From a virus (taxonomy: Duplodnaviria > Heunggongvirae > Uroviricota > Caudoviricetes): DNA of 40,166 nt. A program made the position numbers. Below, in pieces: positions 30,001 through 39,000 of the stretch (positions are counted from its first letter, which is position 1; each line of letters begins with the position of its first letter). The stretch lies in the IMG/VR virus record IMGVR_UViG_2671180740_000012. The stretch is one strand, 5' to 3'.

Positions 30001-33000
30001 CTCCCGGGTTAACCCAATCGGCTTCAGGCTGCTGCGGTTGGTGTGACTGCACATTGGTGTGACTGCACATCTTCACAGACGGTCCCGGTATCTCCGGGTT
30101 AACCCAATCGGCTTCAGGCTGCTGCGGTTGGTGTTGTTGCTGGCGAAATTCTTCCAGATGTGGCAGAATTATTCCCGTGTATTGCTCCATGCCCTGCCTG
30201 AATATCAAATATTCATCAGGATTTGCTCAGAACGTCCGGCCCCAACCGGACGTTTTTTATTTGCATGAACGTTAATGGCATGGTTGAACGCCCGGCTGAT
30301 CGGACTGATATCAGATGCCATCTGGAACGCACATAAAATCGCCGCAATGTATCGCCAGTCGGTACGACTGACCTTCGATTCATGGCAGCCAATCATCTTC
30401 GCCAGTCCCCTTTGCGTCAGAGCTGACAGGTTGATAAGTAAATCCGTTTCAGCGCGATCGATATCGCGCTGCGACAGTTTGCTGTAACTTGTTTGTGACA
30501 TTTCTTATGATTCCAAATAGTGAATAGTTAGTTGAAAGGTATGCGTGGAAACGCATATGGCCTTAGTTGGTCAGATATCTTGGGGCTCGCTTTTCAGCGA
30601 CGTAGGACGAATGTCCATTGTGAAAAGAGCAGTGTTAATTGAGCTTATCGTTGACGATCAGGATTCGCTACATTGCGTAACCATTCGGCGGTAAATTTGC
30701 CATCAGATGCATTGGCGAGAATTTCCGAATAGTTGGTTTTCATCGTGTATTCGGTGCGAGGTAACGCTCCGTTTTTAACCCACTTATGAATTGCAACATT
30801 TGACAACCCGCATAAACGGGCAGCGACTGTTTGACCACCAACAGCTTTTACTGCGAATTGTATCGGATTCATACTGCTATCCATTAATTTAGTTAACTTC
30901 GAGTTAATGTTAACTATTAGCTGACAGTTATGTCAACTATGTTTGATAATTAACGTATGGTTAAAAAAGATGAACTAAAAGAAGCGTTCTCAAAGAGACT
31001 ACTACAGGCATTATTAGATGCAGGTGTGGGCGGACGCGGTCAGGCTAAGCGGATTCAGAATGCAATGAAACTGCGAGGCATTGATATCTCTGAACCGGGG
31101 ATCTGGAAATGGCTTAATTCTGCATCAATTCCAGAAAAAACAAGTATTTTGGCACTTAGTGACTGGCTTTCCGTGAAGCCGGAGTGGTTGGAGTATGGCA
31201 GTAACGAGCCATCCGTAAAACAGCGACCTTCTATTCCAAACGAATCAGAATGGGGTTCCCTTGAAACTTGGGACAGAAATACACCACTACGAGATGATGA
31301 AGTTGAGGTGCCATATCTGAAAGACATTGAGTTTGCATGCGGTGACGGAAGAGTTCATTGCGAAGATCATAATGGTTTTAAATTACGCTTCTCAAAAGCA
31401 ACCTTGCGCCGTGTCGGAGCTAACAGTGATGGTTCTGGTGTGCTTTGTTTTCCGGCTACTGGTGATAGCATGGAACCCGTGATACCAGATGGAACAACAA
31501 TCGCAGTAGACACAAACAACAAACGTATTGTTGACGGCAAACTCTACGCCATCGCACAGCCTGGTGTCGGTGATGAAAAACTGAAGCGTATAAAGCTATT
31601 GTACAGACGCCCCGGTGGAAAACTAATCATACGCAGTTATAACAGTGAAGAGTACCCTGACGAAGAAGCAGATACTCAAAGCGTGGAGATTATCGGAAAA
31701 GTTTTCTGGTATTCAGTTCTGCTTTAGCCCTCTCCCCCGGCCTCAGAGCCGGGTTTTTTATTAACCCAGCTAGCCAAAACTCATCTATCCTAGCTTCTAT
31801 ACCCCTTCATACTTGATAACCGTCGCTCACCGAACAAGCAATAATAATTAACTAAAAATCAAAAACATAGAATGCTTCCACAATAATTTTAACTTTGAGT
31901 TATTGACTAACACTAACCAACGGTTAATAATCATTTTACCAACAGGTCACCGATAACAACGCGGTCCCAATTGGAAAGCTCTTTAAACAACGTCGAACAC
32001 TCGACTACGTGGCTGCAAAGCCAGATCGCCCAACCGCATAAGCTGTCGGGTGCAATGCCGAAGCAATCATCTCAGGGGAGGCTTCGAGATTGCATCGCCA
32101 AAGTTTATTCGGGAGAAATCTATGTCCAGAAAAACAGAATTTAAAGGCACCGCAGCTTCCCGCCGCAGAGCACACCGGGCTGAGCTTCAGAGTCTGGAGG
32201 CATCAAGCGCTGATAAACTGCACCGCCCCACACCTTCACGGGTGTACTTACAGTGCAAACGCAAAGCCGCAATGCGAGCTGAAGTAGTCACGATAACGAC
32301 ATTAACCAGAAAATATGAAGGCTCTACTTGTCTTCCAAACACTGCACTTTACGCAGCTGGCTATCGCAAATCCGGAACAATAACAGCGAGGTGATTGATG
32401 ACCACGCCTTCAGTTTTGCCGCAAAAATTATGGCGTCCGCTTGCAGAGATTAAAAACTTCGTTGAAAAAATGCCTGACGGCGTTCGCCTTACGGAAGTTA
32501 CTAAAAAAGTTAAGACATTTGCCGAACTGTCAGGAAAGGAGAGAAACCAGCTCATAGATTTTATCGATAAACGGGAAAGCATCATTGTATTTAAGGTCAG
32601 AAAAGAAGGTTCTGGTAACGGAGTAACCTTTTTCCGCCACAAAAAATATGGATATCCCAAGCGGGAAGGAAACGTCACAATCATTAAGGACCTTCAATCA
32701 AAATTATGTACCAGATGCGGGCAGACAAAATCAGTCGATGATTTTTATTCAGATGCCAGCAAACGTGACGGGAGAGCCATTTATTGCAAGAAGTGCGAAT
32801 CTGCAATGAAACGCTCACGCAGAGAATGCAACAAATTAATTCTGCAACAACAGGAACCTGAAATGAATAACCTAAAAGCAGTTTCACCTTCACCAGAAAT
32901 ACTCAGAAAGCAGGCGGAAGAATTGCTGAAAGCCGCCGAAATTGCGGAGAAAAAACGCCAGGAAGATGATGTATTCAACAAAAAACTTGCGCCCTTAAAA

Positions 33001-36000: not shown

Positions 36001-39000
36001 GTCTCATCTGTAGAAACGAAATACCAGGAACTGAGAGCAGAACTCTATGAAGCCAGGAAAAACATTTTGCCCAAAAATCCTGTCGATGCAGACAAATTGC
36101 TGGCTGCCTCTCGTGGGGAGTTCGTTGAAGGCATCAGCGCCCCAACCGACCCGAAATGGGTGAAGGGGATCCAGACTCGCGACACTGAGGACCAGAATCA
36201 ATCCAAAGTGGAACAAAACAGCCCGGATACGCAACAAAACGGACCGGAAGAGCAACAGCCTGGGCCAGTAATGCAACAGGGAGTGGAAAAGGTTTGCACC
36301 GCATGCGGTCAGAACAGTGGCGGGCATTGCCCTGACTGTGGTCCAGTAATGGGAGATGAAACTTACGCTGAAACTTTTGGAGAAAATGAGACCGCTGCTG
36401 GAGATGACCAGGCACAAATGAAGAATGAATACATTCAGAAAAATGCTGTTGATACAACTCAGGAACACGATTCGGTTGTTCACATCGATCCAGATAGTGA
36501 TGCTTCTGACAATAATGATGATTCAGAGCAAGCAGATTTCGACTGGAAAAGGCAACTCGTGCTTGCAGCCGTCTATGGTTTGTGCGCAAACCCTGCATGC
36601 GTCGCAACAGCGCCAGCAATCCCTGATATCGCAATCATGATTGCCAACAGGCTTGAAAATTTTGGAGGTGATAAATCATGAATGCCTGGCTTATCCCCGA
36701 TCGCATTGAAGAGCAGTCATGGGCACGAGACTACCGGCAAATTGCCCGTGAAGAAAATGAGACTGAACTGGCGGACGACCTGGAAAAAGGTCTGCCCCAG
36801 CACCTGTTTGAATCGCTGTGCATCGATAATCTGCAACGTCATGGAGCCAGCAAAAAAGCCATTGCCCGTGCATTTGATGACGATGTCGATTTTCAGGAAC
36901 GCATGGCAGAACACATCCGGTACATGGTTGAAACCATTGCCCGCCACCAGATTTATATTGATTCAGAGGTATAAACCAGATGAGTACAGCTCTCGCAACG
37001 CTGGCAGGGAAGCTGGCTGAACGTGTCGGCATGGATTCTGTCGACCCACAGGAACTAATCACCACTCTTCGCCAGACTGCATTTAAAGGTGATGCCAGCG
37101 ATGCGCAGTTCATCGCATTGCTGATCGTTGCCAACCAGTACGGCCTTAATCCATGGACGAAAGAAATTTACGCCTTCCCTGATAAGCAGAACGGCATCGT
37201 TCCGGTGGTGGGCGTTGATGGCTGGTCCCGCATTATCAACGAAAACCAGCAGTTTGATGGCATGGACTTTGAGCAGGACGATGAATCCTGTACATGTCGG
37301 ATTTACCGCAAAGACCGTAATCATCCGATCTGTGTTACCGAATGGATGGATGAATGCCGCCGCGCACCATTCAAAACTCGCGAAGGCAGAGAAATCACGG
37401 GGCCGTGGCAGTCGCATCCCAAACGGATGTTACGGCATAAAGCCATGATTCAGTGTGCCCGTCTGGCCTTCGGATTTGCTGGTATCTATGACAAGGATGA
37501 AGCCGAACGCATTGTCGAAAATACCGCATATACTACAGAACGTCAGCCGGAACGCGACATCACCCCGGTTAACGAAGAGACCATGTCGGAAATTAACGCC
37601 CTTCTTACTTCCATGGAAAAAACGTGGGACGACGACCTCTTGCCGCTCTGTTCCCAGATATTTCGCCGCTACATTCGAGCGTCGTCAGAACTGTCCCAGG
37701 CCGAAGCAGAGAAGGTTCTTGGATTCCTGAAACAGAAAGCCACGGAGCAGAAGGTGGCAGCATGACACCAGAAATTATCCTACAACGTACCGGGATCGAC
37801 GTGAGAGGTGTCGAGCAGGGAGATTATGCATGGCAAAAATTACGGCTCGGGGTCATCACAGCTTCAGAAGTTCACAACGTGATAGCCAAACCCCGCTCCG
37901 GAAAGAAATGGCCTGACATGAAAATGTCCTACTTCCACACCCTGCTGGCTGAGGTCTGCACGGGTGTGGCCCCGGAAGTTAACGCCAAAGCCCTGGCATG
38001 GGGAAAACAGTACGAGAACGACGCCAGAGCCCTGTTTGAGTTTACTTCCGGCGTGAATGTTACTGAATCCCCGATCATCTATCGCGACGAAAGTATGCGT
38101 ACCGCCTGCTCTCCGGATGGATTATGCAGTGACGGCAACGGCCTTGAGCTGAAATGTCCGTTTACCTCCCGGGATTTCATGAAATTCCGGCTCGGTGGTT
38201 TCGAGGCCATAAAATCAGCTTACATGGCCCAGGTGCAATTCAGCATGTGGGTGACTCGAAAAGATGCCTGGTACTTCGCCAACTATGACCCGCGCATGAA
38301 GCGTGAAGGCCTGCATTATGTCGTGGTCGAGCGGGATGAAAAATACATGGCTGGTTTTGACGAGATGGTGCCGGAGTTCATCGAAAAAATGGACGAAGCA
38401 CTGGCTGAAATTAGTTTTGTATTTGGGGAGCAATGGCGATAGCCGTAGCAACGAGGTGCAAATGATATGACAGTTAAGGAATGCTACCGGTGTTCGTCCT
38501 GATCCAGCGCGGGCAATCTTTCGTCGATGCCAACAACTATCCGGTGGAAATCTGCAAGGTAACTCTTACTCAGGTGATCTACCGAAGACTCGACGGCAGA
38601 ACCCGAGCCACTTCAATTGGTGCATTTAATGAAGAATTTGAGCGAGTCGACCACAACGAACTACACATGATTAAAGCGGAAATTGAGAAGGAAATGCATA
38701 TTGCCAGCCTTCGAAAAATGCGACGTACATCAATCAACTGACAACCGCCTTCGGGCGGTTTTTAATGGCAAAAATATGGATTCACACAGTATCACCCTCA
38801 AAGAGGCCTGTCAGTTTCTCAAGATATCAAGGCCAACAGCTGTTAACTGGATACGAACGGGCCGACTACAGGCAACACGAAAAAATTCTTCCGGTAAAAG
38901 ATCACCTTATCTCACAACCCGGCAAGCCTGCATTGCAGCACTTCATTCACCGCTGCATACTGTCCAGGTGAGCGCGGGTGATGGCATAACAGAGGAAAGA

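Follow-up and report, generated by a model that had tools for sequence, protein, structure and literature searches.

The early-left region of a lambdoid phage of the Shiga toxin (Stx) type, IMG/VR record IMGVR_UViG_2671180740_000012 (40,166 nt, analysed at its full length and called the window below), carries five open reading frames (ORFs) between the antitermination gene N and gam, in a pL operon on the + strand. Rather than a set of five orphans, this block is probably an early-left cassette, conserved and mosaic in structure, of a Stx lambdoid phage of the POCJ13 type. The cassette is mostly ordinary, previously sequenced and in part annotated; its one instructive oddity is the last and largest ORF, here called recE', which encodes the N-terminal region of the exonuclease RecE with no nuclease domain. 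The order in the window is cI, a pL-like promoter, a nutL-like site, N, ORF1, ORF2, a terminator, ORF3 (kilR), ORF4, the 682-aa ORF (recE'), gam, bet, exo and int, and over the stretch 32000-37000 the identity to Shigella phage POCJ13 was 100% and that to phage 75/02 Stx 99.5%. All five ORFs, which an earlier note on this sequence had placed between N and gam, are real genes, because each of their proteins recurs as an exact sequence on about 100 to at least 1000 E. coli/Shigella contigs and the ratio of non-synonymous to synonymous substitution rates (dN/dS, calculated by the Nei-Gojobori method for the window genes against two diverged phages) lay at 0.11-0.44.

The recE' protein matched NF007259 over positions 1-593 of 877 (expectation value, E, 2.7e-223; 743.8 bits against a cut-off of 1269) and PF06630 (E 5.7e-13). 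It was 62% identical to Rac-SA53 RecE (aa 43-570), with the zinc ribbon included, and the alignment ended at aa 584. The nuclease domain of RecE has a crystal structure (PMC11611040), and the crystallised exonuclease domain comprises residues ~606-866 (PF12684). Rac-SA53 RecE matched PF12684, whereas recE' gave no match to this PD-(D/E)XK nuclease family, and a comparison of recE' with PDB sequences returned only noise at E<=1 and no match to the RecE nuclease structure. Judged from its sequence, recE' cannot be an exonuclease. The public names of the protein, 'RecE family exodeoxyribonuclease' and 'exonuclease VII/VIII', are misleading; the former overstates recE' because the nuclease domain is missing and the score lies below the equivalog cut-off. 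An AlphaFold2 model built with an 88-sequence alignment, together with the sequence comparisons, gave the following parts of recE' (34633..36681, + strand), for which the confidence measure of the model is the predicted local distance difference test (pLDDT):

Domain A, aa 1-100 (34633-34932): alpha/beta, pLDDT ~95 in the AlphaFold2 model
Domain B, aa 140-410 (35050-35862): helical, pLDDT ~95 in the AlphaFold2 model
Zinc ribbon, aa 555-569 (36295-36339): CTAC at aa 555 and CPDC at aa 566
Acidic disordered linker, aa 585-627: after the ribbon
Conserved tail, aa 628-682 (36514-36678): two helices, aa 638-652 and 660-675, pLDDT 55-68

The acidic linkers were disordered in the model and contained long D/E-rich segments, and the ribbon was poorly resolved. 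The earlier description of the 682-aa product as acidic was correct (isoelectric point, pI, 4.6; 120 D+E against 66 K+R), while the CTACGQ...CPDCG motif that had been called C-terminal is present but lies about 110 residues before the C-terminus.

The N-terminal ~585 residues of recE' are homologous to RecE of the Rac prophage, including PF06630 and the CxACGQ..CPDCG ribbon, and the upstream neighbourhood is alike: kilR comes first, one or more small genes come next, and the recE-like gene comes last. RecE has the PD-(D/E)XK nuclease where recE' has the 55-aa conserved tail instead, and it is paired with recT, whereas recE' is followed by gam-bet-exo, its stop codon overlapping the gam ATG (ATGA overlap). 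The N-terminus of RecE is described as a region whose function is not known, the nuclease domain sufficing alone genetically and full-length RecE improving linear-linear recombination (PMC11611040, PMC11610958). No functional data were found in the literature on the RecE N-terminus, YdfE, POCJ13 or the PhiR phages.

The recE' gene is under purifying selection, and RecE in this form, with no nuclease, is an architecture that has been conserved rather than left as debris. Among the 120 best protein clusters, 109 were 663-700 aa long and aligned with at least 99% query coverage at 78-98% identity; the other 11 were shorter, several of them being named partial. The recE'-gam junction occurred in 79 of 5,426 complete E. 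coli genomes. It is highly improbable that recE' is a decaying and functionless remnant of Rac recE, truncated on recombination beside lambda gam. DNA homology to Rac-SA53 recE does stop at 36377, just past the zinc ribbon, with lambda-type sequence starting at 36699, and the acidic linker (aa 585-627) is near neutral in the window lineage, with a dN/dS of ~0.7. However, more than 100 clusters, with identities down to 78%, preserve an open frame of 680-700 aa, dN/dS is 0.25-0.30 over the whole gene and 0.18 in the tail, which is not part of RecE, and the same tail motif is invariant in proteins of other genera that are 22-31% identical to recE'. The pseudogene reading was rejected on dN/dS and length conservation.

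An exhaustive HMMER search against 1.84 billion representatives yielded only 214 related clusters, and the best 150 of the 214 representatives were classified segment by segment for the tail (by phmmer) and for the nuclease. The tail was found in 24 of these 150 (21 of them of at least 450 aa), the RecE-type nuclease in 25 (22 of at least 450 aa) and both in none. Tail and nuclease are mutually exclusive, alternative C-termini across the family. The tail is the sole invariant stretch among tail-type proteins 22-31% identical to recE'; its consensus is ..QQLTIAALQGLCANPA..D.IP.MA.., in which A645, A646, G649, C651, N653 and P654 are invariant (alignment A3). The recE' protein is itself of the tail type, with the motif AA..G.CANP ... 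IP..A at its extreme C-terminus and no nuclease domain.

Ten tail-type loci came from Buttiauxella, Citrobacter, Lelliottia, Cedecea and metagenomes, and the tail motif was present in 10/10. No gam, bet, exo or recT was found within ~6 kb of any of these ten loci, which indicates that the tail-type protein is independent of an adjacent recombinase. A Rac-type integrase lay just downstream in four of them and a KilR-like ORF upstream in two (L012, L022). These loci bear on another explanation, which we regard as doubtful, namely that RecE is split in the cassette and that recE' is a trans-acting accessory subunit of Red, working with Exo and Bet via the tail and boosting linear-linear recombination. 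Such a role would agree with the ATGA coupling to gam and the invariant adjacency to gam-bet-exo in the E. coli cassette, with the alternation of tail and nuclease as C-termini, and with the improvement of linear-linear recombination by full-length RecE reported in reviews (PMC11611040, PMC11610958). The ten relatives from other genera with no recombinase nearby argue, however, that the tail is not simply an Exo/Bet tether, and the idea of a simple tether to lambda Exo/Bet was weakened accordingly; moreover, many Red-carrying Stx phages, VT2-Sakai for example, are entirely without recE'.

The tail was also considered as a transmembrane anchor. Its Kyte-Doolittle 19-residue maximum was 1.70, but the homologous segment of distant members is polar (QQLTIAALQGLCANPAY), and an anchor is unlikely. 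At two of the other-genus loci (L021 4447-6135, Buttiauxella; L022 4690-6132, Cedecea) the tail motif ends large ORFs in which nothing upstream of the tail matched either domain of RecE-N, A or B, at E<=1e-3. This may mean that the tail is a mobile C-terminal module. Some tail variants (P0189, P0199, P0307, P0311) run past ..ENFG with ..DDEH(I/M)PDF or ..SDERLPDF at the extreme C-terminus. These ends resemble the acidic DDDIPF tip of E. coli SSB, the recruiter of many DNA-metabolism proteins. The recE' protein ends ..ENFGGDKS, with no SSB-like acidic extension.

A relation to YdfE of the Qin prophage emerged through one distant tail-type member (P0257), which has precomputed Pfam matches to YdfE_N (PF27430) and YdfE_C (PF27432) and matched K-12 YdfE at E 1e-12; in K-12 the ydfE gene is a pseudogene truncated by IS2. 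Domain B and the tail motif (..QQLTIAALQGLCANPA..IP.MA..) are common to recE' and the YdfE-type proteins of Qin/Rac-like prophages. Like recE', these proteins are without a nuclease domain, and their genes take up the distal end of the early-left operon, a division inhibitor being encoded upstream (dicB in Qin; the KilR-like ORFs in L012 and L022). They differ from recE' in their N-terminus, in having no RecE-like zinc-ribbon segment and in having no recombinase beside them, and their overall identity to it is 22-31%. Direct homology between recE' and K-12 YdfE was tried by pairwise BLASTP, with a negative result.

We propose that recE' is an autonomous member of a RecE-N/YdfE-like family whose proteins bear either a nuclease or a tail at the C-terminus. 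It consists of the RecE N-terminal region alone, with the nuclease replaced by a conserved two-helix tail of ~45 aa, and is coupled translationally to gam-bet-exo. Domain B would carry its activity. Polar motifs in this domain are conserved family-wide (T273..G276..AGG279-281..TDR285-287, DxDIY312-316 and PGxLDYSRA348-356), a pattern suggestive of a defined site for binding or catalysis. Assembly or the docking of a partner would be the task of the C-terminal module, which is the tetrameric nuclease in RecE and the tail in recE', and the protein would act on DNA-end or host-protein targets alongside Red and independently of it. Several points weigh against this proposal. The pLDDT of the modelled tail is only 55-68, and the roles given to the tail (assembly or docking) and to domain B are ones that we infer. 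Homology gave no function for recE', nor for ORF1, ORF2 or ORF4. The link from recE' to K-12 YdfE and the Qin YdfE family is transitive only, via P0257, and the precomputed Pfam matches of close recE' homologues are to PF06630 only, with no YdfE families among them. Finally, the N-dependent read-through of the terminator inside the cassette, described below, is suggested by likeness to lambda tL1.

The genes of the early-left region are given below with their guanine-plus-cytosine (GC) content and dN/dS; the window mean GC is 0.49.

cI, 30957-31727
N antiterminator, 32122..32394, + strand: 90 aa; PF25694 N_peptide, E 5.9e-26; N-like in the POCJ13 annotation
ORF1, 32398..33111, + strand: 237 aa, pI 9.5, GC 0.42, dN/dS 0.16-0.26
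ORF2, 33143..33499, + strand: 118 aa, GC 0.46, dN/dS 0.43
ORF3 (kilR), 33831..34052, + strand: 73 aa, GC 0.43, dN/dS 0.11-0.15
ORF4, 34138..34524, + strand: 128 aa, GC 0.38, dN/dS 0.36-0.40
recE', 34633..36681, + strand: 682 aa, pI 4.6, GC 0.49, dN/dS 0.25-0.30
gam, 36678..36974, + strand: 98 aa; PF06064, E 2e-61; dN/dS 0.14; followed by bet and exo (lambda Red)
bet and exo: matches to PF03837 (bet) and PF09588 (exo, YqaJ-type), dN/dS 0.03-0.09

ORF2, ORF3 and ORF4 are the three smaller ORFs that had been noticed in the sequence. The accompanying statement that all five genes are of reduced GC holds for ORF1-ORF4 and not for the 682-aa gene, which is at the window mean. ORF1, ORF2 and ORF4 are rich in AT, and their evolution is faster than that of the Red genes (dN/dS 0.16-0.44 versus 0.03-0.14).

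The order N-ORF1-ORF2-kilR-ORF4-recE'-gam-bet-exo was found also in phiSTEC1589-Stx1c, PhiR5_2, 75/02 Stx and an E. coli locus (L013). In PhiR5_2, which was propagated on MG1655, the cassette is present although N and cI differ, and L013 has the most divergent ORF4 homologue, yet the same cassette order. The mosaic structure was apparent at the DNA level. Homology to Rac-SA53 covered 33635-34067 (the kilR region) and 35344-36377 (recE), and lambda/VT2-Sakai homology resumed at 36699 in gam, with 36699-38440 being 92% identical to VT2-Sakai gam-bet-exo. It follows that a Rac-type module, to which lambda Red is joined, makes up the second half of the block. We propose that the cassette consists of two modules, the first comprising ORF1 and ORF2, directly after N and ending at the terminator at 33613-33654, and the second, which would be Rac-derived, comprising kilR, ORF4 and recE'. 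When compared with VT2-Sakai (L010), the pL operon of the window (31900-36700) contained no cIII, ea10 or lambda-type kil. A CII-like activator is encoded at 30205-30501; if CII needs protection from FtsH, no gene for that is evident.

The expression signals of the operon were the following:

pL-like promoter, 31903-31931, + strand: TTGACT-17-AATAAT, from a consensus scan
nutL-like site, 31978..32005, + strand: boxA-like GCTCTTTAA at 31978-31986 and boxB-like hairpin GTCGA-ACAC-TCGAC at 31992-32005, read from the sequence
Intrinsic terminator (tL analogue), 33613..33654, + strand: hairpin at 33613-33647 with a 13-bp stem and a 9-nt loop, then CTTTTTT
kilR leader, 33638..33845, + strand: resemblance to Rfam RF02076 (STnc100 small RNA) over the full model length, 29.1 bits against a gathering score of 47, E 0.0017

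The nutL-like stretch aligned at 83% to the site annotated in VT2-Sakai as 'putative N-utilization leftward'. The internal terminator is indeed strong, as had been claimed, with a folding energy of -23.9 kcal/mol (z = -4.67) that none of 200 shuffled sequences equalled; the consensus terminator scan missed it because of the 9-nt loop. It sits at the border of the ORF1-ORF2 module and the Rac-type module, Rac-SA53 DNA homology starting at 33635. Two related loci (L008 and L009) carry ~350 extra bases between ORF2 and the terminator, and their homology to the window picks up again at 33608 and 33611, respectively, after this indel. Transcription from pL, N-modified at nutL, would most likely read through the 33613-33654 hairpin, to judge from this architecture, and the description of the region as an N-antiterminated pL accessory region was supported. 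The consensus scan also gave a minus-strand terminator-like hairpin at 34532-34557 (11-bp stem, then TTTTTATTT) between ORF4 and recE', opposing the direction of the operon.

ORF3 was assigned as KilR, the Rac-type inhibitor of FtsZ and cell division (NF008465 / PF27398). It matched NF008465, 'FtsZ inhibitor protein', over positions 1-72 of 73 with 155.3 bits against a cut-off of 92, thus above the NCBIfam cut-off, and phrog_294 at E 3e-37; it has the same length as Rac-SA53 KilR and shares 68/73 residues with it (93%). Rac KilR has been studied by experiment as an inhibitor of FtsZ and cell division (PMC12482147, PMC5793797), and ORF3, given the 93% identity, is predicted to inhibit division as well. 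Rac KilR is under RacR control, whereas ORF3 belongs to the N-antiterminated pL operon of a Stx-type phage. Once the operon is expressed, in lytic growth or on induction, the protein would block FtsZ and division. Its public name, 'cell division protein FtsZ', is misleading. The leader in front of kilR, whose resemblance to STnc100 lies below the threshold, may be a conserved kilR 5' untranslated region or a regulatory RNA.

ORF1 starts 4 nt past the N stop codon (32392-32394) and has a GAGG Shine-Dalgarno sequence in front; it is 237 aa long from the ATG at 32398 and 238 aa, the length given previously, from a TTG at 32395. Its parts are a winged helix (aa 9-81), an optional zinc ribbon (~100-140), a disordered linker and, at the C-terminus, a conserved helix or coiled coil of 70 aa. 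The CxxC...CxxC pair and the coiled coil noticed earlier were both recovered, with CxxC at residues 104 and 130 and a single long helix at aa 166-236 in the AlphaFold2 model. The family comprises 67 clusters across Enterobacterales, every one named hypothetical, and in its alignment (A1) the N-domain is conserved, the zinc ribbon is an optional insert and the C-terminal helix of ~70 aa is the most conserved part; the ribbon is missing in the ~198-aa members and is not present in about half of the family. The usual place of a gene of this family is directly behind N, as seen in the E. coli cassettes, a Citrobacter prophage and a variant with an AlpA domain, and a distant 172-aa subgroup is found in the nin region, between KilA-N and DUF968/Q.

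The winged-helix fold is shared with regulators of the MarR/ArsR/PadR type, and some members carry an AlpA-type helix-turn-helix (HTH) on the same coiled coil instead of the winged helix. ORF1 has no sequence-level membership in these regulator families, no Pfam or NCBIfam regulator family matched it and a profile search of PDB sequences was empty. Winged helices also make protein-protein contacts, and cullin WHB and RPA32 scored equally well for ORF1. A 'Lar-like' restriction-alleviation role (Lar/RalR) was considered for ORF1 on the basis of a match to phrog_5558 (E 1e-9) limited to aa 100-163. HNH and endonuclease VII ribbons matched equally, and the Pfam Lar family gave nothing against ORF1 at E<=0.1; the label was rejected, since nothing more than a generic and optional zinc ribbon is matched. 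The most likely activity of ORF1 is binding, as an oligomer, to nucleic acid or to a partner protein, and the best reading of its role is an early regulatory or host-directed one.

ORF2 belongs to phrog_2982 (E 6e-67), and three further families, phrog_30817, phrog_12693 and phrog_32391, matched its N-terminal 42 aa only. The N-terminus of ~45 aa is conserved and common to several PHROG families and to Cronobacter phage and Aeromonas phage proteins. With the same N-terminus, the protein is 118 aa long in the window versus 220 aa in L013, and we picture it as a conserved N-terminal handle with an exchangeable C-terminus. ORF4, of phrog_2016 (unknown function), exceeds the other genes of the block in AT content, and a CxCxxC cluster lies close to its C-terminus. 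Its 26 clusters (66-98% identity) are all from E. coli where the source names an organism, and its homologues are always in the same cassette, between kilR and recE'. Relatives of ORF2 and ORF4 were found in none of the other loci examined, except for an ORF2 N-terminal match in L018.

ORF4 holds the slot of RacC and YdaE of Rac, between kilR and the recE-like gene. Its likeness to RacC is one of position only, since BLASTP gave no alignment at E<=100, and it was rejected as a RacC homologue. The window has no ydaE, and an 85-nt gap (34053-34137) lies at that place; phiSTEC1589 (L008 5253-5426) encodes a 57-aa YdaE homologue, an Rtr1/RPAP2-like zinc protein, between kilR and ORF4. No function was obtained for ORF1, ORF2 or ORF4 from Pfam, NCBIfam, PHROGs, PADLOC, PDB sequences or fold searches, and nothing matched ORF2, ORF4 or recE' among PDB sequences. 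Weak matches of the five proteins in the Pfam, NCBIfam, PHROGs and PADLOC libraries (Stc1, Striatin, OB_NTP_bind and 2TM effector) were below cut-offs and were dismissed; the 2TM-effector match, to ORF2 in PADLOC, was marginal (E 0.0047, 14.6 bits). ORF1, ORF2 and ORF4 may be host-interaction or regulatory accessories.

The earlier note had assigned none of the genes to a family and had made them candidate counter-defence genes, to be checked by remote homology and structure prediction. Families were found for ORF3 (KilR) and the 682-aa protein (the RecE N-terminal region), while ORF1, ORF2 and ORF4 did stay without one. Confident homology to defined functions, which the note had named as counting against its proposal, was thus obtained for two genes, through NF008465 and NF007259. 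It is possible, though on the whole unlikely, that the block is a counter-defence or host-takeover island in which ORF1, ORF2, ORF4 and perhaps recE' inhibit restriction-modification, retrons and abortive infection, with recE' serving as a decoy or mimicking DNA and ORF4 blocking a toxin in the manner of RacC. The genes do sit in the N-antiterminated pL accessory region, ORF1-ORF4 have a GC of 0.38-0.46 against 0.49 for the window, and selection on ORF2 and ORF4 (dN/dS 0.36-0.44) is looser than on the Red genes. Modular turnover is seen in the swapped ORF2 C-terminus, the presence or absence of ydaE and the restriction of ORF4 to E. coli, and recE' is strongly acidic, with long D/E-rich disordered segments. 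In Rac, racC, a small orphan just upstream of recE, is reported to block the retron toxin RcaT, recE triggering that retron (bioRxiv 10.1101/2020.06.22.160242). However, there was no meaningful PADLOC match and no named anti-defence family in PHROGs, no dedicated anti-defence library being scanned; ORF4 is not similar to RacC; the 'Lar-like' PHROG match of ORF1 is to a generic zinc ribbon missing from half of its family; and KilR and recE' are confidently assigned to other families. With no match to a known defence or anti-defence family, the argument is one of position and composition, a positional inference and not a finding. For ORF1, ORF2 and ORF4 the idea stays a possible one; for recE' it is less so.

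To return to the conserved mosaic cassette, its meaning lies chiefly in recE'. A widespread E. coli/Shigella prophage protein is named an exonuclease despite having no nuclease domain, and the RecE N-terminal region is kept under purifying selection without a nuclease, whether it stands next to lambda Red or by itself in Rac/Qin-like prophages. This selection and the conserved alternative C-terminus argue that RecE-N has an activity of its own. More speculatively, and with little confidence, one may picture the RecE N-terminal region as an autonomous unit of unrecognised fold, fused to a nuclease in RecE or capped by a tail in the recE'/YdfE type, which here would cooperate with Red or counter some host factor, for instance a nuclease, a client of SSB or an immune sensor, with ORF4 or ORF2 as linked counter-defence genes, as racC is to recE. 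The three ORFans ORF1, ORF2 and ORF4 are reasonable, unproven candidates for host-interaction and counter-defence screens. The recE' cassette offers a clean genetic system for the activity of RecE-N, for example in the inducible phage PhiR5_2 on MG1655, and, if the proposed reading is true, this natural 'split' would be a direct handle on the function of the RecE N-terminus.

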